Shown: positions 4,962 through 23,977, numbered from the stretch's first letter. The stretch: 64,000 nucleotides of DNA from Candidatus Parcubacteria bacterium (GCA_003599755.1 QZJO01000011.1:2424-66423), one strand, 5' to 3'. Notes: generated by a model not told the origin, from the sequence alone. Numbers and translations: made by a program.

Positions 4962-5627
4962 TTATTCACTGCCGGGAATCCGCGTCCCGTCGACCGCGCG
5001 CCAGAGGTACCACGAAGCGATTGAGGCGTATTGGCGCCATGGCCGGGCAAGCTCCTCCATGCGTTTCGGGCTCGGCATTCGTTTGAGCTCGTAGACGATC
5101 TGGAATCCCTTTCTGATGCCGAGGTCCCCGGTCGGCAGAATATCGGGCCGCCGCAGGGTGAAAAGCAGGAACATGTGCGCGGTCCAGACGCCGATGCCCT
5201 TTACCCGGACCAGGTGCGCGATGATCTCGTCGTTTGCCATGCGTCCGAATCGGCGGGGCTGGATAGTACCATCCGAGAATTTTCTTGCGAGATCTTTAAT
5301 ATAGAGCGCCTTTTGATTCGAGAGGCCTGCGGCGCGCAGTTTCGACATGGGCATGGCCAAGACCATTGCCGGCGTCGGAAATTGCTTGCCGCCGAATAGG
5401 GCAAGAAACTTCGCGAGAATGGACGAGGCCGCCTTGCCGGAAATCTGCTGATATACGATGGCGCGCACGAGCGCGCGGAACGGATCTCGATTGCGGCTGA
5501 AATCCGGCGGCCCGTGCCGTTTGATGAGCGGCCGGAACCGCGGATCCATCCGGAGGAACCGCACCGAATCAAAAATCGTACCCTGCTTGAGCGGCATTGC
5601 ATTGATGGGCCGCGGATAGCGCGGCAT
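4962..5627 (-). CDS. alkA: DNA-3-methyladenine glycosylase II / HhH-GPD family base-excision glycosylase (AlkA-like)
   Basis: HhH-GPD helix-hairpin-helix region (LVRVKGIGVWTAHMFLLFTLRRPDILPTGDLGIRKG) with the catalytic Asp context. Confidence 0.7.
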   Translation of the reverse strand: MPRYPRPINAMPLKQGTIFDSVRFLRMDPRFRPLIKRHGPPDFSRNRDPFRALVRAIVYQQISGKAASSILAKFLALFGGKQFPTPAMVLAMPMSKLRAAGLSNQKALYIKDLARKFSDGTIQPRRFGRMANDEIIAHLVRVKGIGVWTAHMFLLFTLRRPDILPTGDLGIRKGFQIVYELKRMPSPKRMEELARPWRQYASIASWYLWRAVDGTRIPGSE

Positions 5628-5781
5628 TATACGCTCTGCGATCGCTTTTCTTTCCGTTTCGGGGTCGTGCCGAATCTCTTGACGCTCCCCTCAAGGCGAG
5701 ACGCCCGGGGCCGGCCGCGGAATTGATCGGGATGCGCGCGTCCGCGCGATGGTTTGCCTTTCATGCGTAGTGATGCTGGCG

Positions 5782-6366
5782 CTATTGCGCCGCGTGCGCC
5801 TTGAGCCGTTCTTTGAGTTCGCCGACCTCTGTTTCGAGTTCGCTGACGCGCCGTGCGCGCTCTTTGAGATACGCGTTCAGCCGCTCTAATTCCTCGATAT
5901 ATTGTTTTGTTTGTCCGGCGAATGCTTTGCGGATCGTGGCATCCGGTTCGATGCCGATAAAGAATTTCACGTCGCCCGCATCATCGAGCACCGGAAAAAT
6001 ATGGAGCTCCTGCCAGTATAGCTCGCCGTCTTTGTTGCGATTTTGCACGTCGCCGATGAACGGGCGTTTCTCTTCTTTGATGGTCTTCCACATCCGTTCG
6101 TAAAAGTCCTTGTCCATGATCCCGCCCCAAAGATCCCCGGGATTTTTTCCCAGGATTTCGGCGGGCGGGAATCCCGTGTGTTTTTCAACGGCATCATTCG
6201 CGTATACGATGCTTCCCTCGGGATCCGTAATTACGACGTGCTCGCCGATCAGGTCAAATCCCTCGCTCAGCGTACTGATCTCCGAGCGAAGCTGTTTCAG
6301 CTGTTCCGGCGGAAGCGGTGTATGGCGGCTCATGGGTATGGCGCCGAAGGGGTTACGGTACGGCAA
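5782..6366 (-). CDS. Stand-alone PAS-domain protein with C-terminal coiled coil
   Basis: PAS core ...VVITDPEGSIVYANDAVEKHTGFPPAEILGKNPGDLWGG... is about 60% identical to the sensor domain of the histidine kinase at 13554-14696. C-terminus is heptad-like (ELERLNAYLKERARRVSELETEVGELKERLK). Confidence 0.75.
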   Translation of the reverse strand: MPYRNPFGAIPMSRHTPLPPEQLKQLRSEISTLSEGFDLIGEHVVITDPEGSIVYANDAVEKHTGFPPAEILGKNPGDLWGGIMDKDFYERMWKTIKEEKRPFIGDVQNRNKDGELYWQELHIFPVLDDAGDVKFFIGIEPDATIRKAFAGQTKQYIEELERLNAYLKERARRVSELETEVGELKERLKAHAAQ

Positions 6367-9529: not shown

Positions 9530-10312
9530 TTAAGTAGTATCCCTTTTTTGCATCCATTTTGCGAACCCTTCGAACGAACGGAGGATTTCCAGCGGAACGG
9601 TGAAGACGACGGTGTTGGACTGATCCGACGAGATGTCGTTGATGGACTGCAGCGTCCGCAGATGCAGCGCGCCCTCGGTGGATGCCAGAATCTTTGCGGC
9701 TTCGGACATGTTTTTCGCCGCTGCCAGCTCCCCTTCCGAGTTGATGATGACCGCGCGCTTTTCGCGTTCGGCTTCGGCTTGCTTGGCAATGGTCCGCTCC
9801 ATGTCCGCGGGCAAGCTGATGTCTTTCAATTCCACGTTGTTCACCTTGAGGCCCCAGGCATCGGTTTCCTTGTCCACGATTTCCCGGATCCGGTCGGCCA
9901 GCTTTTCGCGGTTTGTCAGAAGCTCGTCGAGCGATACTTCGCCGACGATGTTGCGCATGGTCGTCTGGGCATATTGCGAAATCGCGTAGCGAAAATCTTC
10001 TACCTCGAGAATGGCTTTTTCCGCGGATTCGACGCGGTAGTAAATGACGGCGTTGACCGTGACCGAAACGTTATCCTGGGTGATGGCTTTCTGGTCCGGC
10101 ACGTCCACCGCTTTGACGCGCATGTCTACCTTGCGGTAGCCCTGGAAGATCGGGATGACGATGCGCCAGCCCGGATCCATTATGCCGGTAAACCGGCCCA
10201 TGGTGAATCTGAGGCCGCGCTCGTATTGGTTGATCTGTTTCAGACTGACGAGAATCAGAACGACGATGAATGCGCCGATCGAGTAGAGCCAGATCTCAGC
10301 GGTAGTCAGCAT
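9530..10312 (-). CDS. SPFH/Band-7 (stomatin/prohibitin-like) membrane protein
   Basis: N-terminal TM helix followed by an SPFH domain (MRVKAVDVPDQKAITQDNVSV..., coiled AKQAEAEREKRA segment). Confidence 0.8.
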   Translation of the reverse strand: MLTTAEIWLYSIGAFIVVLILVSLKQINQYERGLRFTMGRFTGIMDPGWRIVIPIFQGYRKVDMRVKAVDVPDQKAITQDNVSVTVNAVIYYRVESAEKAILEVEDFRYAISQYAQTTMRNIVGEVSLDELLTNREKLADRIREIVDKETDAWGLKVNNVELKDISLPADMERTIAKQAEAEREKRAVIINSEGELAAAKNMSEAAKILASTEGALHLRTLQSINDISSDQSNTVVFTVPLEILRSFEGFAKWMQKRDTT

Positions 10313-10423
10313 AGGTCATAGTGAGCGGGTAATGCCCCATTTTCTCCATATCGGTATCGAGAAGCCGCGTCAATAATGGTGATGACATTCCGGCTGCGGC
10401 CGGAGCGGCGTCGGGCCGTATCA

Positions 10424-11842
10424 CTAGCGCGTTTTAAGCGAATCGAGTCCGCGGACCTCGATGCTCGCGCCGGCCTCCGGATCGTTGCGTTGGGGCGCGG
10501 GGATATTCTGCGCGGGCCGTTCGCTCACTTTGCCGTATCCGCATTGCGGGCCCGGATCGGGCACGGTCGTGCCGTCAGTTGCCACTACCGCGCCGCCGCG
10601 GGCCGCGTGCCAGTGATCAGCCCCGCAGCCGATTTCGCTTTCTACTTTGAGCTGGCTGACGGGCAGGTACTTTCCATTGTATTCGATGACCGTAATCATC
10701 GGCGTATCGCCCACGAATTGCCGGATGCCCTGGATTTCCTCGTCGGTCATCGTGTCCAAAAGCGTTCCGGTCGGATGGCCTTCCCAGGTCTGCGTGAAAG
10801 CCCAAGATAGAAGTGTAATTCCCTCCCACGGGCCATAATTGACGATTTGGTTGTTGCGGATCTCCACGGTTTCGGTGCCTTCGGGCGTAGCCGGATCGTT
10901 GATATCCAGATACGTCTGGCCGTTCGCTTGGTGGATGCCGGTAACGGTGACCATGTGCCCGCCGACGATTTGGGTGCCGGCCGCATTGGCGAACTTGATG
11001 CGAAGCTCCACCGCATCTCCCTGTTGGAGCGCGTCGCGGATCGCATCCACGGTCGAGAGGCCGTGCGTATCCCCCACTTTTTCGGTGCGGATGGGTACGC
11101 CCGCGGCCGCAGCCCAGCGGTTCTTGCCGGCCACGAAATCATCGGGCGGCACGCCGTTTTGCGGCGTCCAGTTCATGTGGCGCTTGAGGTTTTCGATGAA
11201 ATCCTGCGGATCGCCGGGGATGAGATCTTCGCCGCCGTTTTTGGCGACAAGCGAGATCAAGCTGTTGGCCGCGGCGGTCGGCGCGCATTCGCCCTTGCGC
11301 TGCGAAAGATCGGGCACGCCGCCGGTCGTGATTCCCACCGGTCCGCTCTGGTCTTGTGCCTGCGCGACCGCGATTCCCCAGCCCTTGGTCGCGTTTTCGG
11401 GATCGGTAATCGACGCGAGGTCCAAAAGTTCCCCAACTTCCATGGTCTTGGCCGCGACCGTCGCGTCGTATTCGGCGCCGTTGATCGTTACGCGGGCCTT
11501 GGCGCCCTCGGCCGGCGGCGTGGCAGCCGCAACATACACGCCGCTTGCCCAATTGGCTTGCGGATGTACCGGCGCGTTCCGAACCAGGTATTCATCGTCC
11601 GCGAACGATTCGTCGCCGTCTGCATCGGCCGCGACGCTCATCGCCGCCCGGCCATCGAGCCCACGGATAAACGGCATCTGCACCAGGAGTTTGCCGGTCG
11701 CCTGTCCATTGCTGGTAAATGCGGTAACCAGGACGGTATCGCCGACCAGTGCGCCTCCATTCGGATTCGATGCGGTGTTCCAGGCAAACAGCAGTCCGGC
11801 GAGAATGACGATTGCCGCGCCGATCATCAGGGCATTCTTCAT
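10424..11842 (-). CDS. Secreted/anchored 472-aa protein of unknown function with candidate Cys...His dyad
   Basis: N-terminal signal/anchor (MKNALMIGAAIVILAGLLFA). Internal QRKGECAPTAAANSL and, about 110 aa later, IVGGHMVTVTG, reminiscent of papain-like or transglutaminase-like hydrolases. C-terminal GCGADHWH. Confidence 0.5.
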   Translation of the reverse strand: MKNALMIGAAIVILAGLLFAWNTASNPNGGALVGDTVLVTAFTSNGQATGKLLVQMPFIRGLDGRAAMSVAADADGDESFADDEYLVRNAPVHPQANWASGVYVAAATPPAEGAKARVTINGAEYDATVAAKTMEVGELLDLASITDPENATKGWGIAVAQAQDQSGPVGITTGGVPDLSQRKGECAPTAAANSLISLVAKNGGEDLIPGDPQDFIENLKRHMNWTPQNGVPPDDFVAGKNRWAAAAGVPIRTEKVGDTHGLSTVDAIRDALQQGDAVELRIKFANAAGTQIVGGHMVTVTGIHQANGQTYLDINDPATPEGTETVEIRNNQIVNYGPWEGITLLSWAFTQTWEGHPTGTLLDTMTDEEIQGIRQFVGDTPMITVIEYNGKYLPVSQLKVESEIGCGADHWHAARGGAVVATDGTTVPDPGPQCGYGKVSERPAQNIPAPQRNDPEAGASIEVRGLDSLKTR

Positions 11843-11890
11843 AGTATGGAGACAGTACCAAATACCGCGGCAATGCTCAACGCCGGCGTG

Positions 11891-13561
11891 TTACGCAGCC
11901 AATGCGCCATGCTGCTCCGTTTTCAGCCGGGCCAACGTTTTTGCGTTCCATTGCTCGCTTTTGAGTACGCGCGCGATCCATTCCCCGCCGAGCGTATGCG
12001 GCATCATGACGAAGTCGGCCCCGTGCTGGTAGAGCGCCGCGGCGTCGGCCGCGTGGTAGGCATTCGCAATGATAAGCGCATCTTTGTTGGACTTGCGCAC
12101 GAACTTCATCAAGTTGATCTGGTCATCCACGGCCGGGATGGTCATGATGACGATTCTGCTCGCGGCGATCGACAGGCCTTCCAGAAATTCAATATCGGCG
12201 ATATCGCCGAAGTAAAACGGGATATCGGCTTTGCGGAGCCGCGCGACGGCGGCCGGATCGAAATCGACGACGGCAAAATTCGTTTTCAGATCAGCCATTG
12301 CCTCGGCTACTTTCATGCCGATGCGGTGATAGCCGATGATCCAGGCGTCATACTGTTCGGGGGCGCGATCTTGCTGGCGGTATTTGTCTGGTCCGAATCG
12401 GCGGAAAAACGGCAGAAGCATGCGATAGATTTTCTCGTTATAGGAAATCAGATACGAAGAGGCGAAAATGGTGGCAATGGCTACGGCCGTGAAAATCGCA
12501 ACCTCGTCGCCCTCGATGTGCCCGGCCTGCCGGCCGGCGAACAAAAGCACGAACCCGAACTCGCTGACCTGTGCCGCGGTCAGGCCGGCCAAAAAGCTGT
12601 TGCGCCGCGTAAAGCGCAACGTCCGAAACAATATATAGAGGATCAACGGATTGCCAATAAGAATGAAGAGCGAGAGTACGATGGCCGGTGTCGCGATGGT
12701 CTCGAGCGAGCTGAGGCCCATTTCGCTGCCGAGCACGATGAAAAAGAGAATCAAGAAAAAGTCGCGCAGGGGCCGGATGCGGCTCGCGATTTCCAATTGG
12801 TACGGCGACGAGCTCAGCGCGATGCCGGATATGATCGCGCCGATCTCGAGCGAAAATCCGAGCGCGTAAAGCGTGCTTGCCACGCCGAAGCACCAGGCAA
12901 GCGTGAATAGGAATAAGAGTTCGCTCGAATCGGCGATTCTGTCGAGTAATTTCGGCAAAAGATATCTACTCGCCAGATACAAAACGCCGGCTATGGCCGG
13001 GAGCATCACGATCATCGTGCCAAGATCACTTCCCCCGCTCGCCCGTTCGCCCTGGATCATGCCGAGCGCGATCACGAGGATAACGGCGATCACGTCCTGC
13101 ACGAGCATGAGGCCGATGGTATGGCGGCCGTACATGGTGTCGGTATCCTTTTTGTCCGACAGCAATTTCATGATGATGATCGTGCTCGAAAACGTGATGG
13201 CCACGGCCAAATAGAGCGCGGCTACCAGCGGCATGCCCAGCATCAAAAGCAGCACCGTGCCGATGCTTGCCGTGAAGATTACTTGGCCAAGCCCCGTGAT
13301 GAGGGATACTTTGCCGATGGATTTGAGGTGGTTGAAGTTGAGGTTCAGTCCGATGATGAAGAGCAATAGCACCACGCCGAATTGCGCGAATGTTTCATAC
13401 AGTTCATGGTCGCCGTGGAAGAGATTCAGGATGAACGGGCCGGCGATGATGCCGGCGAAAATATAGGCAACGATCAGGGGTTGGCGGAGCAGCTTCACGG
13501 CAAAAGCAACGCCGACCGTCACCGCCAAAAGCAAACTGGTTTGTACGAAAATGCTATCCAT
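11891..13561 (-). CDS. Monovalent cation:proton antiporter-2 (CPA2, Kef-type) with C-terminal RCK/TrkA-N domain
   Basis: About 12 TM helices followed by a Rossmann-type TrkA-N region (WIIGYHRIGMKVAEAM...VVDFDP). Confidence 0.8.
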   Translation of the reverse strand: MDSIFVQTSLLLAVTVGVAFAVKLLRQPLIVAYIFAGIIAGPFILNLFHGDHELYETFAQFGVVLLLFIIGLNLNFNHLKSIGKVSLITGLGQVIFTASIGTVLLLMLGMPLVAALYLAVAITFSSTIIIMKLLSDKKDTDTMYGRHTIGLMLVQDVIAVILVIALGMIQGERASGGSDLGTMIVMLPAIAGVLYLASRYLLPKLLDRIADSSELLFLFTLAWCFGVASTLYALGFSLEIGAIISGIALSSSPYQLEIASRIRPLRDFFLILFFIVLGSEMGLSSLETIATPAIVLSLFILIGNPLILYILFRTLRFTRRNSFLAGLTAAQVSEFGFVLLFAGRQAGHIEGDEVAIFTAVAIATIFASSYLISYNEKIYRMLLPFFRRFGPDKYRQQDRAPEQYDAWIIGYHRIGMKVAEAMADLKTNFAVVDFDPAAVARLRKADIPFYFGDIADIEFLEGLSIAASRIVIMTIPAVDDQINLMKFVRKSNKDALIIANAYHAADAAALYQHGADFVMMPHTLGGEWIARVLKSEQWNAKTLARLKTEQHGALAA

Positions 13562-14696
13562 GGCGTGCTGCCAGTTCGCGAGCGCGTCCCTCTTGCATCG
13601 GATGACGAGTTGGAATAACGATACGGAAAACTACCCCGGTTTCTTTTCCTGGCGGCGGGCTTTCGAACCAGATCTTCCAGCCGAAATGGTCGGTGATCAA
13701 TTTCACGAGATAGAGGCCAATGCCGCTGCCGGATGATTTGCGCGCTTCGGCGCTTTTGGTGCGGTAGACGCGCGTGAAAATTTTGTCTCGTTCATCCGGG
13801 AGAATGACGAGGCCGTTATTCTCGCACGAAAATAGAAACCCCTCGTCGTTGCGGACGAGTCGGACTTCGACGCGGCCGTTGCCCGGATCGCAGTATTCAG
13901 CCGCGTTCGAGATGACATTGAAAAAGACGATGAGGGCAAGCTGGCGTTCCACGGTGATAACGGCCGGCTCGCTGGGCTGTTCGAACGAGATATGAACCGT
14001 GGGATGCGCTTTTTGAACCTCTGCGATAATCTTGGTGATTTCTTCTTCGAGCCGGAGCGGTTCCTTACCGGATACGGCGCCCTGCAGGCGGCTTGCGGCA
14101 AGAAGGTCAGTAACGAAGTAGATCAGGTCCTGATTTTTGCGATATACCTCGTCGAGAATCTCACGGTCTTTCGGGTCGAGCTTGCCGCGCAATCTGAGCC
14201 AGTCAAGCAGCCATTTCGTGGCGGTGAGCGGATTTTTCAGCTGATGTCCGACGATGGAGATGAATTCCGCGCGGAATGCCTCCTGCTCCTTCCGGTCGGT
14301 GATGTCGGGCTCCACGCCGATGAAGAATCGGACGTTTCCTTCTTGATCAAGAATCGGCGCGATATGGAGCTCCTGCCAGTAGTGCGTTCCGTCTTTTCGC
14401 GTATTCTTCACTTCGCCGACAAAGGGCTCTTTGGTTTCCTTAATCGTGCGCCACATATTCTCATAGAATGCCTGCGGCATCTCGCCGCCCCAAAGATCCC
14501 CCGGATTCTTTCCGATGATTTCGCTGATCGGGAAACCAGTGCGCTCCTCAACGGTTTTGTTCGCATACAGAATATTGGCATTCGCGTCGGTGATGACGAC
14601 GTGATCGCGCAATAAATCGAATCCGCGTTTGAGCGGCTCGATTTCCCGCAAATATGTTTCGAGATCGGCTCGCGAAAGCGGAGTACGGATAGCCAT
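13554..14696 (-). CDS. PAS-domain sensor histidine kinase (cytoplasmic)
   Basis: PAS core shared with 5782-6366. HisKA H-box FISIVGHQLKNPL. HATPase_c region (N, G1/G2 boxes: NAAEYCDPG..., GSGIGLYLVK). The 3' end overlaps the Kef gene start by 8 nt. No response regulator in the window. Confidence 0.85.
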   Translation of the reverse strand: MAIRTPLSRADLETYLREIEPLKRGFDLLRDHVVITDANANILYANKTVEERTGFPISEIIGKNPGDLWGGEMPQAFYENMWRTIKETKEPFVGEVKNTRKDGTHYWQELHIAPILDQEGNVRFFIGVEPDITDRKEQEAFRAEFISIVGHQLKNPLTATKWLLDWLRLRGKLDPKDREILDEVYRKNQDLIYFVTDLLAASRLQGAVSGKEPLRLEEEITKIIAEVQKAHPTVHISFEQPSEPAVITVERQLALIVFFNVISNAAEYCDPGNGRVEVRLVRNDEGFLFSCENNGLVILPDERDKIFTRVYRTKSAEARKSSGSGIGLYLVKLITDHFGWKIWFESPPPGKETGVVFRIVIPTRHPMQEGRARELAARHG

Positions 14697-14707
14697 GGTC
14701 CGGATTC

Positions 14708-15619
14708 CTATTTGAGAATGCAGTTTTTATATGTTTCGCCGCCGCCGGCTTCGGTGATGAATGCCGTATCGCCTTTGTTCCAGAACACGAACGACTCGTC
14801 GGCTTTGGCATAGCGCGCGCCGGAAGCCGATAGCGCGCGCGGCACGGAAAGTTTTCTGCCATCGCTCAGCACGAGGTCGACGTACTTGTCGTCTCCGATG
14901 TAGAACGACGCTTGGATGGTTCTATCGTCTGCACACTGGAAGGTGACGGTCTTGGGCTGGGTCGCCGTGCAGTACTGCTCCCAGCTGCGCTCGCAGGCCT
15001 GGCGCGCTTCGCACCAGGAGTAACCGGCAGCAATCAGGCAGCCGTGCTCGTCCGTTTGGCCGCCGATGGTTTGATCATTGATGTCTTTGAGTTGCATTGC
15101 CTCGGCATCCAGTATGAGCCGCGCGCTTTTACCGACCGACGGCCGTGCCGTCATGGGTTCGCCCGGTTGGCGATCGGCGTAGTTTACGACAATGGTATTT
15201 CCCGGGCCCGATTCGATGGTTTGGGGCGCGATGCGGTCCCCGAGCAGAAATGCCTGCGAGCCGACGTATCCGGTTTCGGTGTTGAGCGCCGCGACAACGT
15301 AGAAAAACGTCCCCGATCCCCCGGTCTCTTGCGTCAGAAGGAACGCTACGTCTTCCCGCCCGTCACCGTTCAAGTCCTTGCGGACTTCGTTGCCGAAGTA
15401 GCGCGTGACGATTTTCGACGCAGACCCCGGAGCCGCTTCCAGCTCCGATATGCCGTTTGCCAGCGTAATCACGCGGCCCTCGATCACGTACGTCGCATCC
15501 TTTTCGCTCGCCGCCGGGCGCTGGTCGCCCTGCTTTTCGGTGTAGATATAGTCATTCAGGAAGTAAAATCCGCCTACGATGAGCACCACCACTACGATTG
15601 CCCATAACAGTATTTTCAT
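14708..15619 (-). CDS. N-terminally anchored extracytoplasmic protein with C-terminal MliC-type (membrane-bound lysozyme inhibitor of C-type lysozyme) domain
   Basis: Signal/anchor helix. C-terminal TVTFQCADDRTIQASFY...LSVPRALSASGARYAKADESFVFWNKGDTAF...C matches the MliC/PliC SxSGAxY core with flanking Cys. Upstream is a Cys-rich segment (CLIAAGYSWCEARQACERSWEQYC). Confidence 0.65.
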   Translation of the reverse strand: MKILLWAIVVVVLIVGGFYFLNDYIYTEKQGDQRPAASEKDATYVIEGRVITLANGISELEAAPGSASKIVTRYFGNEVRKDLNGDGREDVAFLLTQETGGSGTFFYVVAALNTETGYVGSQAFLLGDRIAPQTIESGPGNTIVVNYADRQPGEPMTARPSVGKSARLILDAEAMQLKDINDQTIGGQTDEHGCLIAAGYSWCEARQACERSWEQYCTATQPKTVTFQCADDRTIQASFYIGDDKYVDLVLSDGRKLSVPRALSASGARYAKADESFVFWNKGDTAFITEAGGGETYKNCILK

Positions 15620-16131
15620 ACCTGTTCGTATTGTACTTGGATAATACCATGCTCCAATTTTTGGACCGATTTGAACTGCAACGACATGGTGAAATCCCTG
15701 TGCGCGAATACGGGTTTTCCCGCACCGACGATCACCGGCTCGATGTTGAAAATAACCTCATGAACAAGCCCTGCCTGCATGAATGCGGAATTCACCGTCG
15801 GGCCGCCGCCGACGAGGACGGATGCTATCCCCTGCGCTGAAAGTTTTTGCAGCGCGTCTTCCGGCGAAGCGGCAGCAATGAACCCCGTTTTCAGCTGATT
15901 GGGCCGGGATGTTATGACGACGCGCGGAATATCGGCCAGATCATCGAAACTGTAATCGGCATCCCAACTCGCTACCGTCTCCAATGTTTTCCGGCCGATG
16001 ATGAGCGCTCCCTTCTCCCGAGCAAGAGCGCAAAATACGGTCCAGTTGGCATCTGAAATAAAATCCTCGCTACCGGATTCATCGGCCACGAAGCCGTTGA
16101 GCGACATGGCCATGAATAACGCGACGCGCAT
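15616..16131 (-). CDS. Dihydrofolate reductase-family protein (RibD C-terminal domain type)
   Basis: MRVALFMAMSLNGFVADESG...LIIGRKTLE...VLVGGGPTVNSAF; start trimmed to ATG 16129-16131. Paralogous to 16789-17385. Confidence 0.7.
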   Translation of the reverse strand: MRVALFMAMSLNGFVADESGSEDFISDANWTVFCALAREKGALIIGRKTLETVASWDADYSFDDLADIPRVVITSRPNQLKTGFIAAASPEDALQKLSAQGIASVLVGGGPTVNSAFMQAGLVHEVIFNIEPVIVGAGKPVFAHRDFTMSLQFKSVQKLEHGIIQVQYEQV

Positions 16132-16190
16132 AGCTGAAGCATCGCGCAAATCCAAAACGCCCACAAGGGGCGTTTTGGCATCCCGTTATG

Positions 16191-16788: not shown

Positions 16789-17385
16789 TCAGAACGATCC
16801 GGTTTTCACCTCTCCCGCCCGTTCGTAGTTGGCGACAATCACGCCTTTGGGCGATGTTTTCGAATCTTTGAGCGTGAACGCCGCCGGGATCGTGCCCTCG
16901 CCGAACAAGCGTTTTCCCGGTCCCAGCGTGACCGGGAATATTTTCAACCAAAACTCATCCACGAGGTCGTGCTGCAGAAGCGTCTGGATGAATTCGCTGC
17001 TGCCATGCACTTGCAGCTCGGGACCATCTCCCGCCTTGAGCTGCTTCACCGCTTCGACGACATCACCGGCCAGAAGCACGGAGTTCTCCCATTCGGGCGT
17101 CAGCGGCGAATGCGAGGCAACGTATTTTGCCGCCTTATTAAGCGCGCTGCCTTCTTCCGGGTGATGCGGCCAGTACGATGCGAATATGTCGTAGGTCTTT
17201 CTGCCGAGCAAGAGGGCAAAGGGATGGCCCATTTGCTCGTCCATGACGTTGCCGAGAAATTCGTCGAAATACGGGACGGTCCAGCCGCCGTATTTGAACC
17301 CGCCGGAGGTATCTTCCTGGGGGCCGCCCGGCGCTTGCATGACGCCGTCGAGGGAAATGAACGTAAGGACAATGAGTTTGCGCAT
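16789..17385 (-). CDS. Dihydrofolate reductase-family protein (RibD C-terminal domain type), second paralog
   Basis: MRKLIVLTFISLDGVMQAPGGP...LLLGRKTYDIF...LQVHGSSEFIQTLL is the typical YyaP/RibD_C signature. Confidence 0.75.
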   Translation of the reverse strand: MRKLIVLTFISLDGVMQAPGGPQEDTSGGFKYGGWTVPYFDEFLGNVMDEQMGHPFALLLGRKTYDIFASYWPHHPEEGSALNKAAKYVASHSPLTPEWENSVLLAGDVVEAVKQLKAGDGPELQVHGSSEFIQTLLQHDLVDEFWLKIFPVTLGPGKRLFGEGTIPAAFTLKDSKTSPKGVIVANYERAGEVKTGSF

Positions 17386-19699: not shown

Positions 19700-20908
19700 T
19701 TACCGGCGGGAAAGCACGAAGAGCACGAGCCACGACGCCCACGCCAAGATGCCTGCGGCGATGAATGGGGTCTGGATGCCGAGGGCCCCCGAACCCACGC
19801 CGGCGATGAACGGGATCAGGCCTTGCGAGAATGCGAGCAGCGACGCATTGATGCCGAGGGCCGCGCCTTGTTCGTCGGGCGAAACGCTTTTCGAAACGAG
19901 CGCCCCGAGATTGGCCATGGTCAGCCCCTGCGGGATGGCTACGAGCGGGATTATGGCATACAGATACGCCGTATTGGGAAGAAATGGATACAGGATGAAG
20001 AAAAATCCGATGATCGGCATGGTGAAGTAGAGGATCGAGCGCTCGCTGTATTTCCGCACGAGTATGCGAAGGATAAACAGCTGCGTCACCGTGACCCAGG
20101 CGCCTACGATACCGAAAAACGTTCCGATCCCCGCCTCCGAAAAACCGAACCGGTTGATCAAGAGGATGCCGATGAACGATGTAAAAAATGCGAAGCCCGC
20201 AAAATACAGGAAGTTCGTGATATATACCGGCCGGGCATCGCGGTCGCGCCATGCAGCGCGCAAGTTGTGAATGCCTTTCAACATATGGAACGAGCGCGCC
20301 GCGCTGCGTTCTTTGCGGGTTTCGGGCAAAAAGAGCGTAATGGACATCGTATTTACGATTCCGAGTAGCCCGGCGAACCAGAAGGGTGCGGCAGCGCTTC
20401 CGGTAAATTCCGCGATCAAGCCGCCGAGGATCGGCCCGAGAATGAATCCGATGCCGAATGCGCCGCCGATCAGCCCGAAGTTTTTGGCGCGGTCTTTGGG
20501 TTCGGTGATGTCGGCAATGGTCGCTTGGGCAACGGCAAGGTTGGCGCCGGCGATGCCCGATAACGCTCGGGCAAGGATCAAAAGCCAGAGCATCTTTGCC
20601 ATGATCCCGAAGCCGAAGAGGAATTGCGCGATCGCTAGCACCCCGACGCCCGCAGTCAGAATGCGTTTTCGTCCGTATACGTCCGAGAGCTCCCCCACGA
20701 TGGGTGCCGCAAAAAATTGGAACAAGCCGAAGAGTGCGGTAATGATGCCCGCGATCAGATATTGCGAGCTTTGCGAATAACCCTGTAACAGGAACGACGG
20801 CGAGGAGGGATCGGTGAAGATGACCGGGATAATAGGAAAGAGCATCCCGAGCCCGACCATATCTAAAAGTAGCGTCGCGAAGAGAATGGGGAGAATTTTG
20901 CGGGACAT
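19700..20908 (-). CDS. MFS transporter (DHA1/TetA-like, 12 TM)
   Basis: MFS motif A-like [11 protein letters not shown] and 12 predicted TM helices. Confidence 0.8.
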
Positions 20909-21322: not shown

Positions 21323-22576
21323 CTACGCCGGCTTTTTGCCGAGCGCGTACCAATCGATGTCGCGCGTCAGGTACATGATTCCGCCCAGAAGCATGAACAA
21401 AAGCAGCGAACCGAACAAGAGGGCGTAATCCTCGAGCTGGAGGACGAAATACAAATATCCGTAGAGCGCGACCAGCATGACGGCAATGGGAACTGCCCGG
21501 CGCTTGCTCCGCAACACGAATGCGCTGTAGAGCGATACCAAGAGCGTGATCATCGCGGTTGCCGTGATATATGCGGCGATGAATCCGATCTGCTCGGCCA
21601 GAGACAGAAGCAAGATATAAAAGAGGGCAAGGGCCGAGCCGATCAGGAGATACTGAATCGGGTGCACGCGGACTCTTGCCAGCACGTCGAACAAAAAGAA
21701 CACGGCAAACGTGATGATAATGAAGAGCACCGCGTATTTCACGCTGCGAAAGATCATGTCGTAGGCGTCCACGCCGGGGTATAGATCAACGCCGAACGTG
21801 GATGCCGACAATTGCGCCGCCGATACCTCATCCCCCCGCCATGTTTGGGGGAATGACCGTCCGAATGAAGAGAGCCGCCATTCTGCCTGGAATCCGGACG
21901 CGTTCACGTCCCGCTGGGACGGAAGAAATGTTCCGGTGAATTTCGGCGATTGCCACGGCGAAGACATGACGACGATCGTTTCTTTGCCTACGGGCGTGAA
22001 CGAAATTCCTTCGCTGCCTTTGATTTGGAATGCAAGCGAAAACGGAATAGTCCCGGCGTTCGCATCCACGGGAACCGCCGCGTGGAGGCCTGAACCTTCT
22101 TGGAATCCCGCTCCGGGCCCCGGCTCGAAGGCATAGTTCGCGCCCGCCCAGGTCAGGGTGAGCTCTTCCTCTATTCCCCGGGTATCGGTGATGGGAAGAG
22201 AGAACACGGCCGTGCCGGATCGCCCGCGCGCGAGTTCGGCTGCCGAAAATTCGCCCGAAATTTTGACGGCGCTCGAATATACGACCACGTCAAAGATTCC
22301 CCGCGAGCGCGTCTCGGGGAGCATGGTGGCTTCGATCCGCGTGTTTTCCGGGAGAATATACGTCCGCGTCGGCGTTTCTTCCTCTGTTTCGGCCACGACC
22401 ATCGGGCCGGTTATTACCTGCCGTTGGCCCCACTGGGACGCGATTTCCCGCCTTGCGTCCGACAGCCGATCCCGCCGCTCCTCCACGAGCGCCAACGCCA
22501 ACAGGCTCGCGACAAAACAGGCGCCTGCAATCACGGCGATAGCGAGAAGTTTGAGAGAAATGCCGTCCTGGTTCAT
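21323..22576 (-). CDS. creD: Cell envelope integrity inner-membrane protein CreD
   Basis: CreD architecture: N-terminal TM, large periplasmic domain (...VYSSAVKISGEF...), then a C-terminal cluster of TM helices. 417 aa. Confidence 0.7.
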   Translation of the reverse strand: MNQDGISLKLLAIAVIAGACFVASLLALALVEERRDRLSDARREIASQWGQRQVITGPMVVAETEEETPTRTYILPENTRIEATMLPETRSRGIFDVVVYSSAVKISGEFSAAELARGRSGTAVFSLPITDTRGIEEELTLTWAGANYAFEPGPGAGFQEGSGLHAAVPVDANAGTIPFSLAFQIKGSEGISFTPVGKETIVVMSSPWQSPKFTGTFLPSQRDVNASGFQAEWRLSSFGRSFPQTWRGDEVSAAQLSASTFGVDLYPGVDAYDMIFRSVKYAVLFIIITFAVFFLFDVLARVRVHPIQYLLIGSALALFYILLLSLAEQIGFIAAYITATAMITLLVSLYSAFVLRSKRRAVPIAVMLVALYGYLYFVLQLEDYALLFGSLLLFMLLGGIMYLTRDIDWYALGKKPA

Positions 22577-22739: not shown

Positions 22740-23498
22740 TTAGGCCGTTGGTCTTGAGTTAGCGGCACTCGCTTGCCGAAAGAGCAGCGCGGAACCGACA
22801 AACGCCATCACCCAGAAAGTATTGAGCGTGAAGACGCGTACGACCCCGGGGGCGAAGTCCGGCGTCCCGATGATGAGCGCGATGACGGGGATCGCGAATT
22901 GGACCAATGCCGCGGCAAAGAGTACGTAGGACATGCCGCGCGGCTTGAGGCGCGCAATGATGGCGCCGATGAAGAGCGTGAAGATCACGCCGGCGTAGAG
23001 CACATTGACGTCGCTACCGCCGATAATGCCCACAGCACCGTTGACCCAGGCCAGAAGAAGCATTGCCGCAACGGCCATGCCAACGGCAAACCGATATGCG
23101 GCATTGCCCGATGTTCTGGCAATAAGTTCATAGAGAAGCGCGGAACCGAAGAGCACGACGACGGCAAACACGAAATCGCCTCGCGTCCAAGGCCATTGCG
23201 CCAGCAGCGGTATCATGAGAATCGCCACAACGAGGACGGCCCATATGCTCAATCGTTTTATGGTAGTTTGCATACTGATGCGCGTTAAATGTTCCCTGAT
23301 AATCCCTGCGAATGTTTCGACAAATATCCAGAGGGCGAAACCGAGCAATTCCCTGCTTGCCCCTTGGCGCTCGCGGAGCATATCGCCGAAGGTCTGCTCC
23401 ATCCCCTCGCCGAAGCACTCGCGGTACGGCTTCGGATAGAGGCGAACGAGGGTTGCGTACCAAGTACGGTATCGCCGTATCGAGCGGTCATGCTGCAT
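22740..23498 (-). CDS. Polytopic membrane protein encoded immediately downstream of and overlapping a PadR regulator gene
   Basis: Soluble N-terminal about 60 aa followed by about 6 TM helices. The 11-nt overlap with the PadR gene suggests a regulator plus membrane partner pair. Confidence 0.55.
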   Translation of the reverse strand: MQHDRSIRRYRTWYATLVRLYPKPYRECFGEGMEQTFGDMLRERQGASRELLGFALWIFVETFAGIIREHLTRISMQTTIKRLSIWAVLVVAILMIPLLAQWPWTRGDFVFAVVVLFGSALLYELIARTSGNAAYRFAVGMAVAAMLLLAWVNGAVGIIGGSDVNVLYAGVIFTLFIGAIIARLKPRGMSYVLFAAALVQFAIPVIALIIGTPDFAPGVVRVFTLNTFWVMAFVGSALLFRQASAANSRPTA

Positions 23499-23844
23499 AC
23501 CCGAACGTATTCGATGAAAGCCGTTTGGCGACCGCTACGACCTCGCGGTATCGTTCCAATTCGGCCGCAAGCGCTTTTTGGCCGAGGCCGGTGATTTTGT
23601 AGTAAATCCGCCGCTCATCATCTATTGCCGGGTCAATCTTTTTGTCGCTTTCTCGTATCAGTCCGGCTTCGATCATGCGGCTGAGAGAGCCGTAGAGCGT
23701 GCCCGGCCCCATGGCCACCTTCCCCTGTGAATCGGCCTCGACCTGCTTCATAATTCCGTAGCCGTGCCGCTCTATGGCCGAGAGCGCTAGGAGGATATGC
23801 AGCACGGCCGGCGTGAGAGGTGTATTGGCGATGGTTTTAGGCAT
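23488..23844 (-). CDS. PadR family transcriptional regulator
   Basis: Winged-helix PadR signature LHILLALSAIERHGYGIMKQVEADSQGKVAMGPGTLYGSLSRMIEAGLI. Start trimmed to MPKTIANT (ATG 23842-23844). Confidence 0.8.
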   Translation of the reverse strand: MPKTIANTPLTPAVLHILLALSAIERHGYGIMKQVEADSQGKVAMGPGTLYGSLSRMIEAGLIRESDKKIDPAIDDERRIYYKITGLGQKALAAELERYREVVAVAKRLSSNTFGYAA

Positions 23845-23977
23845 ATTTCGCACTATATCTGTTGCGGATATAGTTGGTACTCCCCCGCTCTTCGTGCGGT
23901 TTCGCATTGAGCGAAACCAAAAACGCCCCTACGTGGCGTTGAAAAATCATTCGTTTTGAGGCATAATCGAACCGCAT

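Follow-up and report, generated by a model that had tools for sequence, protein, structure and literature searches.

A PAS histidine kinase and a kinase-less PAS paralogue in a Parcubacteria contig probably belong to a recurrent DoxX-linked redox signalling set

We analyzed a 64,000-nucleotide (nt) stretch of DNA from a Candidatus Parcubacteria bacterium (GCA_003599755.1 QZJO01000011.1:2424-66423; hereafter, the window). In it, the gene of a PAS histidine kinase (PAS-HK) overlaps the gene of a Kef-type K+/H+ antiporter, and a separate gene encodes a related PAS domain joined to a putative coiled coil (PAS-CC). A first-pass annotation had treated the kinase and the antiporter as a functional pair. 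Our results suggest another grouping: the kinase, PAS-CC, and a small membrane protein of the DoxX family would form a recurrent Patescibacteria redox signalling set whose genes are dispersed in the window, and Kef would be a lineage-specific neighbor. We assign this reading a probability of about 0.6. There is nothing unusual about the kinase, the antiporter, or the overlap of their genes. In contrast, PAS-CC as a family and its association with DoxX and PAS-HK appear undescribed in the literature searched: the papers listed (for DoxX together with histidine kinases, 12 of 28) included nothing relevant on two-component systems of Parcubacteria or the candidate phyla radiation, or on a pairing of DoxX proteins with histidine kinases.

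To survey relatives, we scanned 64 loci of species representatives in GTDB and another 80 loci of metagenomic origin in six frames for PAS, kinase, receiver, Kef, and DoxX genes. After de-duplication, the set held 67 kinases, 15 clear PAS-CC genes, and 30 genes of other or truncated form, 112 genes of the PAS family in all. Two small four-helix membrane protein families recur beside these genes. One is clearly DoxX (36.6 bits; the Pfam PF07681 gathering cutoff is 23.6 bits) and adjoins PAS-CC or PAS-HK in loci L008, L013, L025, L033, L072-L074, L080, L088, L090, L097, L110, L114, and L150. The other, FAM8, carries the motif WVLRI.VAGEF.GHG and lies beside PAS genes in L004, L011, L020, L024, L033, L070, L093, L115, L124, and L126. 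The flanks of 106 loci (987 kb) contained 27 DoxX-like genes, 26 of them within 2 kb of a PAS gene and 18 separated from it by no more than 150 nt, compared to 3.3 expected under uniform placement (Poisson P 1.5e-8). Counted from the PAS side, 19 of the 112 genes have a DoxX-like gene within 150 nt, and in 18 of these 19 cases both are on the same strand. The adjacency was seen for 13 of the 67 kinases (10 of 48 when at least 600 nt of flank was available on both sides) and for 4 of the 15 PAS-CC genes. Since it is found in about a fifth of loci, the link to DoxX is recurrent but not obligatory.

Independent gene calls with Pfam labels revealed a 2.7-kb contig with the order DoxX→PAS-CC→PAS-HK and gaps of 30 and 94 nt, an SDR→DoxX→PAS-CC arrangement with a 6-nt gap, and a PAS-CC gene abutting a convergent DoxX gene and a Crp-family regulator. 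In L091, 18 nt separate the PAS-CC gene from an adjacent kinase gene; L084, L127, and L074 each have a short PAS gene next to the kinase gene. A gene upstream in L151, also tested, is not DoxX (by eye, it is SHOCT-like). The DoxX protein of the window is an orthologue of PAS-adjacent DoxX proteins (phmmer E 1e-45 to 1e-70 against those of L008, L013, L025, L033, L072-L074, L080, L090, L097, and L110), and the window thus holds all three parts in dispersed form. Its DoxX gene is on the same strand as the PAS-CC gene and 852 nt downstream of it, with one glycosylase gene in between (Table 1). No copy of FAM8 was found in the window.

Judged by its sequence, the kinase is typical of a large family found in Patescibacteria. 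A search returned 274 homologues at E<=1e-10, mostly from Parcubacteria/Patescibacteria, mostly 350 to 380 amino acids (aa) long, and 45 to 53% identical. The protein consists of an N-cap helix and PAS domain (residues 1-136; PAS_9, 2e-18), a DHp/HisKA domain (HisKA 4.8e-9, residues 142-205), and a catalytic domain (residues 256-363; HATPase_c, 6e-17), with no transmembrane segment. In an alignment of 30 kinases (A1), the phospho-acceptor His151 of the H-box (GHQLKNP) is kept in at least 90% of homologues; N264 and G295 are invariant, G323/G325/L326/G327 of the G2 box are near-invariant, and the N, G1, and G2 boxes are all present. The AlphaFold model (predicted local distance difference test score, pLDDT, of 82, with values of 85 to 97 over most of residues 210-365) contains the N-cap, PAS, DHp, and catalytic parts, and its best Foldseek matches are YF1 (4gcz), SB2F1, VicK, and WalK. 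The order of domains is that of soluble PAS-DHp-CA kinases of the FixL/YF1 type (4gcz, 8a3u) and of the cytoplasmic parts of VicK/WalK (4i5s); full-length Foldseek E values against YF1/VicK/WalK-type structures are 1e-21 to 1e-27, and phmmer against full-length YF1 gave 1e-21. Two hallmarks are missing from the window kinase: the cysteine of LOV domains and the heme histidine of FixL. Among the 30 orthologues, which come from different organisms, mean pairwise identity is 66% in the PAS core versus 42 to 44% in the DHp and catalytic domains. Several variants of the family were also seen. L003 carries two tandem paralogous kinases (10001-11104 and 11117-12214, 12 nt apart), and in L036, L037, L039, and L133 the same PAS domain lies at the extreme C terminus of open reading frames (ORFs) of ~640 to 660 aa, behind N-terminal parts of ~500 residues.

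As the first-pass annotation had reported, PAS-CC shares the PAS domain of the kinase: the two proteins are 60% identical over 136 aa of the kinase N terminus (BLASTP E 2e-57), far above chance. The PAS-CC start codon is almost certainly the ATG at 6333, because the resulting N terminus aligns with Met1 of the kinase, fits the N termini of 29 homologues, and gives the length of an identical database protein. Behind a kinase-like N-cap and PAS, the DHp and catalytic domains are replaced by a single 50-residue exit helix (133-182), which is uninterrupted in the AlphaFold model (pLDDT 92.6). Full-length homologues are 173 to 205 aa long (~180 aa) and 45 to 63% identical; the 29 homologues in alignment A2 are 39 to 62% identical to the window protein. 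The family is marked by the motifs NPGDLWGG and YWQEL in PAS and by a conserved tail, RKxFExxxxQYxEELERLNxYLxxRExKxxEL, to which the tail of the window protein matches with a hidden Markov model (HMM) E value of 3e-16.

The suggestion that PAS-CC is a stand-alone copy of the kinase PAS did not survive these comparisons. In a neighbor-joining tree and an identity table, the kinase PAS falls among those of orthologous kinases (70% identity to a Sungbacteria kinase), whereas the PAS of PAS-CC is 54 to 59% identical to kinases and other short proteins alike. The 140-aa domain is poorly resolved in the tree, which we use for this coarse conclusion only. The 60% identity of the window pair is slightly below the 66% mean of the kinase orthologues. 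A recent duplication was rejected on these grounds, and judging from the alignments PAS-CC is an old, separate family of ~180-aa proteins. No conserved neighbor such as obg was found beside PAS-CC genes of relatives, and the adjacency to obg is private to the window. In L035, the PAS-CC gene overlaps an msrA-like gene by 4 nt (9986-10522 / 10519-11067; GGGCFWCLE, by eye). Both in L030 and in L035, the genes flanking PAS-CC include some that resemble cupins by eye. Short LOV/PAS proteins such as PpSB1-LOV of Pseudomonas putida likewise comprise an N-cap, a PAS core, and one long C-terminal helix (Jα) without an effector, and a parallel dimer held by the helices would be expected. Unlike PpSB1-LOV, PAS-CC lacks the photoactive cysteine and the flavin-phosphate arginines, has its own helix motif, and is encoded in linkage with DoxX and a paralogous kinase.

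By hhalign, the PAS-CC and kinase families are colinear through residue 147, that is, over the N-cap, PAS, and the first ~11 residues of the helix, which correspond to the start of DHp α1 in the kinase; they diverge beyond this point, and the tail of PAS-CC was therefore rejected as a degenerate DHp. This shared segment would allow PAS-CC to be a kinase-dead decoy that forms a heterodimer with PAS-HK through the N-cap, the PAS surface, and the beginning of the exit helix and damps or gates autophosphorylation. Such a role, a specific version of one step in the scheme given below, is in keeping with the predicted architecture of a PAS followed by one long helix, with the adjacency of the two genes in some relatives, and with the existence of PAS-HisKA proteins lacking a catalytic domain. 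However, the tail beyond residue 147 has a conserved motif of its own (EELERLNxYLxxRExKxxEL) that is unrelated to DHp and suggests a PAS-CC homodimer or a different partner, and many PAS-CC loci have no kinase nearby. We consider the decoy role possible but on the unlikely side. The PAS-HisKA proteins (P0263, P0269, P0270, P0275, and P0281; L027 9878-10576) are ~190 to 233 aa long and intermediate in architecture between the kinase and PAS-CC; some may be truncated by contig ends.

Residues H32, T36, D37, Y44, N46, W69, G70, Y78, K89, N98, G103, Q108, and P114 are invariant in both the kinase and the PAS-CC families. The closest solved relatives of the domain are MmoS PAS-A (3ewk, 9e-23) and NifL PAS1 (2gj3, 9e-19), followed by YtvA-LOV and Aer. 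W82 on the Fα helix aligns to the Trp of MmoS (DMWRTI) and NifL (ALWGRL), and N98 aligns to the Asn of their N-R-R-K-D stretch; both residues are conserved in A1 and A2 and are present in both PAS proteins of the window. NifL and MmoS belong to "cluster 4" of PAS domains that bind flavin adenine dinucleotide (FAD); the Fα Trp is the primary FAD determinant, and Trp together with Asn marks the cluster of NifL and MmoS (Xing et al. 2023, PMC10468136). Two other cofactor classes were rejected. The domain is not a LOV photoreceptor because, compared to YtvA, the adduct Cys62 (of GXNCRFLQ) is replaced by Pro65, the phosphate-binding Arg63 by Gly66, and Gln66 by Trp69, with Pro65 and Trp69 invariant in the 30 kinases; the phosphate-binding arginines are absent altogether. 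A heme PAS of the FixL/DosP type is recognized by a proximal-ligand histidine on Fα (PMC10468136), and the Fα helix here (residues 75-87, QAFYENMWRTIKE) contains no histidine. The pocket residues, whose inspection the first-pass annotation had proposed as a check, thus speak against LOV and heme and fit the FAD type of NifL and MmoS.

FAD is the most likely cofactor of this PAS domain, at a confidence that we hold somewhat below even odds because the Eα motif NPGDLWGG is unlike that of any characterized flavin PAS. The window PAS also differs from NifL and MmoS in that this motif is invariant within the family, in the Pro at the Cys/His/Glu position, and in its context, which is a minimal kinase in one case and a bare helix in the other, not a multidomain protein. 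An alternative is a PAS without any cofactor that senses by binding the cytoplasmic face of a DoxX-like or TspO-like protein, the latter being the true sensor and the invariant residues forming a protein interface. The kinase lacks a transmembrane segment, as this model would have it; many loci have a small membrane protein immediately upstream, drawn from three families (DoxX, FAM8, and TspO); and the arginines that bind the flavin phosphate in LOV domains are missing. Yet the invariant residues fall in the classical cofactor pocket (Eα, Fα, Gβ, Hβ, and Iβ) and include the Fα Trp and the Gβ Asn expected for FAD, and ~80% of loci have no adjacent membrane-protein gene. A cofactor-free PAS is therefore unlikely in our judgment.

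The claim that no response regulator is encoded in the 64 kb was borne out. In the six-frame translation of the window, the best match to an HMM built from six classical regulators had an E value of 3.3, and the best match to an HMM built from 37 receivers of related loci had an E value of 1.5; the same models match receivers at other loci with E values of 1e-17 to 1e-31. The kinase is an orphan in this sense, but the label is not informative, since only 4 of the 67 de-duplicated kinase loci (L013, L020, L078, and L083) have a receiver within 150 nt. The orphan state is normal for the family. Three of the adjacent receivers (L013 4685-5098, L020 5714-6121, and L078 1405-1785) are single-domain proteins of 127 to 137 aa encoded directly after the kinase; the L013 protein matches Pfam Response_reg at 1e-20. 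They have in common an EWGK...LVKxDW signature that also occurs in receivers located elsewhere in L023, L031, and L146. The fourth case (P0084/L083, 551-2086) is a REC-PAS-HisKA-HATPase fusion of 492 to 512 aa with an N-terminal receiver and a kinase of the same family. Single-domain EWGK...LVKxDW receivers are likely the class of cognate partners. In contrast to FixL-FixJ, the regulator is as a rule encoded away from the kinase, and those found next to it are single-domain receivers and not DNA-binding proteins of the FixJ type.

Another claim of the first-pass annotation, one signal sensed by two outputs, can be retained in part. The kinase and PAS-CC probably read the same signal and work together, as suggested by the invariant pocket residues that they share, the adjacency of their genes, and the link of both to DoxX. 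The other part, a kinase output directed at ion efflux, is not supported (see below).

Several observations weigh against a DoxX-linked redox set. In the window, the DNA glycosylase gene intervenes between DoxX and PAS-CC, and the distance from DoxX to the kinase gene is ~8.6 kb; across relatives, adjacency to DoxX is confined to about a fifth of loci. On the Pfam DoxX model, FAM8 reaches 21.2 bits, short of the 23.6-bit threshold. In the GTDB scan, which relied on incomplete genomes and strict patterns, no genome had both PAS-CC and PAS-HK loci. The case for FAD comprises two aligned residues; the Eα motif GKNPGDLWGG is unlike GKNESILSNG of NifL and GQDHRIVNSG of MmoS, and the His of some FAD-PAS clusters is an invariant Pro here. 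To our knowledge, Patescibacteria generally lack respiratory chains, which bears on the source of a membrane redox signal. Last, a TspO_MBR gene occupies the DoxX position in L152 (3498-3974, 26 nt upstream of PAS-CC), and in L066 another (5500-5994) precedes a Kef orthologue by 6 nt. The TspO cases leave a residual probability for a loose stress-gene neighborhood that includes Kef.

It could also be argued that the whole neighborhood is coincidental: a compact and shuffled gene order, as in Patescibacteria, would by itself produce the DoxX adjacency, and PAS-CC and the kinase would serve unrelated pathways. The neighborhoods of the kinase are otherwise very variable, and DoxX is missing from most loci, as this explanation predicts. 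It does not account for the 18 immediately adjacent DoxX-like genes where 3.3 are expected or for the same-strand orientation in 18 of 19 cases; moreover, each PAS architecture has links to two DoxX-like families, and in the PAS tree the kinases with such a link do not cluster. We regard pure coincidence as very unlikely.

The 8-nt overlap of the kinase and Kef genes on the same strand, reported by the first-pass annotation, is real. At the junction, the kinase gene ends ...GCA CGC CAT GGA TAG, and Kef, in its own frame, begins ATG GAT AGC. The overlap exists because the window kinase alone has an 18-aa C-terminal tail: past the conserved C-terminal "IP", the 29 homologues extend by 1 to 10 aa, and the tail of the window protein is the longest of the 30. 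Co-transcription of the two genes is likely, since the overlap is real and there is no terminator between them. The antiporter itself (Na_H_Exchanger, 1.9e-57; TrkA_N/RCK, 2.4e-20) has 6172 homologues at E<=1e-30, of which the top ~120 are 59 to 79% identical and of the same length. Like E. coli KefC and KefB, it carries the membrane domain followed by TrkA_N/RCK in one chain; it differs from them in belonging to a Patescibacteria-wide orthologue group with variable neighbors.

Among the 67 de-duplicated kinases, only that of the window has Kef within 6 kb. Conversely, none of five Kef homologues at 71 to 78% identity (six places) has the kinase beside it, and the genes upstream of the five differ: a hypothetical gene near FAD_binding_2, TspO, RpoD, hypotheticals, and an EamA-flavokinase fusion. 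No receiver-like or phospho-acceptor domain, which the first-pass annotation had proposed to look for, was detected in Kef by Pfam. The juxtaposition is lineage-specific, and a dedicated functional coupling is unsupported. Kef is a highly conserved housekeeping gene of Patescibacteria and probably a bystander to the kinase. Apart from this, the TspO genes beside PAS-CC in L152 and beside Kef in L066 are the sole indirect thread that ties Kef to the neighborhood of the sensor, and L066 also has a C39_2 gene (12681-13508), comparable to the one next to Kef in the window, which follows its Kef orthologue at a distance of ~5 kb.

A translationally coupled unit, in which the kinase controls ion efflux or Kef serves as a co-sensor in the manner of DctA-DcuS or PhoU/Pst-PhoR, could appeal to the overlap, to likely co-transcription, to the TspO genes just mentioned, and to the established concept of transporters as co-sensors of PAS kinases (e.g., the PhoU-PhoR PAS interaction, PMC13577022), but it is rejected as highly improbable because synteny fails from both the kinase and the Kef sides, the overlap is the product of a private tail, unrelated neighbors in the same gene series overlap or lie ~10 nt apart just as closely, and Kef has no domain other than Na_H_Exchanger and TrkA_N. 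Follow-up effort on a kinase-to-ion-efflux route can thus be saved.

Table 1. Positions of the genes and sequence features discussed, counted from the first nucleotide of the window.
Feature	Position	Strand	Basis or remark
Kinase PAS-HisKA-HATPase, 380 aa, soluble	13554-14696	-	ORF + Pfam
Kef-type CPA2 antiporter with C-terminal RCK (TrkA_N), 556 aa	11891-13561	-	ORF + Pfam
Kinase/Kef overlap, 8 nt, ATGGATAG	13554-13561	-	Sequence read directly
Kinase 18-aa C-terminal extension TRHPMQEGRARELAARHG, absent elsewhere	13557-13610	-	Runs the reading frame into the Kef start codon
PAS-CC, 183 aa	5782-6333 (ORF as called, 5782-6366)	-	Pfam PAS only, BLASTP, family alignment
DoxX-family four-helix membrane protein, 157 aa	4457-4930	-	Pfam DoxX, 36.6 bits
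HhH-GPD glycosylase, between PAS-CC and DoxX	4962-5627	-	
SWIB/MDM2-domain protein, stand-alone, 82 aa	9243-9491	-	111 bits
Peptidase_C39_2-like secreted protein	10424-11842	-	Directly downstream of Kef
RibD_C (dihydrofolate-reductase-like) paralogues, two	15616-16164; 16789-17385	-	Flank a hypothetical secreted protein upstream of MliC-kinase-Kef
MFS transporter near CreD	19700-20908	-	
CreD inner-membrane protein, full-length	21323-22576	-	439 bits
PadR-family regulator near CreD	23488-23907	-	

Gene coordinates in Table 1 were taken from an ORF listing combined with Pfam; the window is GC-rich. On the minus strand, the genes follow in the order RibD_C-like, hypothetical, RibD_C-like, MliC-domain protein, kinase, and Kef, and then C39-like peptidase, SPFH, SWIB, hypothetical, ABC-F, Obg, PAS-CC, HhH-GPD glycosylase, and DoxX. 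The region is one long series of co-directional genes that are unrelated in function and have hardly any space between them: there is a 4-nt overlap of RibD_C with MliC, the end of MliC is 11 nt from the start of the kinase gene, and the ABC-F and Obg genes overlap as called. With unrelated neighbors packed this tightly, the 8-nt overlap of kinase and Kef is not distinctive. No intergenic terminator-like site was seen in the kinase-Kef gene series; a scan for promoters and terminators was uninformative, as consensus matches fell within genes only and promoter-like sites were at the level of shuffled background. Two further features of the window are the SWIB/MDM2 domain, better known from eukaryotic chromatin proteins, here as a stand-alone protein, and CreD, which occurs without the CreB/CreC two-component genes in the window.

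The analysis establishes the domains present, the families to which the proteins belong, their conservation, and the statistics of gene neighborhoods. The following scheme goes further, and in it FAD binding, redox sensing, the part played by DoxX, the interaction of PAS-CC with the kinase, and the identity of the receiver are all provisional. A redox-type membrane signal, generated or relayed by DoxX, would set the state of the PAS domain. The kinase would dimerize by its DHp helices and autophosphorylate His151, and the phosphate would pass to a single-domain receiver whose gene lies in another part of the genome. PAS-CC would read the same signal and either pair with the kinase by the N-cap, PAS surface, and exit helix or provide a separate output through its own conserved helix. 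Kef would have been placed in overlap with the kinase gene by a lineage-specific rearrangement combined with the tail that this kinase alone carries at its C terminus. DoxX proteins have ties to the redox chemistry of quinones and thiols, and a redox role would fit the DoxX link as well as the msrA-like gene overlapping PAS-CC in L035 and the cupin-like neighbors, the last two identified by eye.

Histidine kinases that depend on accessory membrane proteins are known from DcuS-DctA, PhoR-PhoU/Pst, and LiaS-LiaF. By analogy, the soluble kinase studied here, blind to the outside, is encoded in some relatives beside a membrane protein that may supply its signal. Unlike in these systems, the partner would be a DoxX-family protein, and the set adds a paralogous PAS protein without a kinase part. 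The set of DoxX, PAS-CC, and PAS-HK may be a further form of two-component signalling assisted by accessory proteins, in a phylum that is still poorly understood.

The genomes of Patescibacteria are tiny, and little is known of the ways in which these bacteria perceive their hosts or environment. Two of their conserved protein families share one strongly conserved PAS sensor, probably of the flavin type, and both are repeatedly encoded next to DoxX-like membrane proteins. A broader proposal, which we consider rather unlikely at present, is that a DoxX-type (occasionally TspO) protein, PAS-CC, the PAS kinase, and the receiver make up a phylum-wide flavin-based redox- or oxygen-sensing pathway, with Kef drawn into the same transcription unit in the lineage of the window; if true, this pathway may be among the few environmental sensing systems kept in the reduced, host-dependent Patescibacteria. 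The module would place the poorly understood DoxX family in a signalling context, and, as a recurring sensor whose predicted cofactor can be tested, it offers a concrete entry point to sensing in Patescibacteria.

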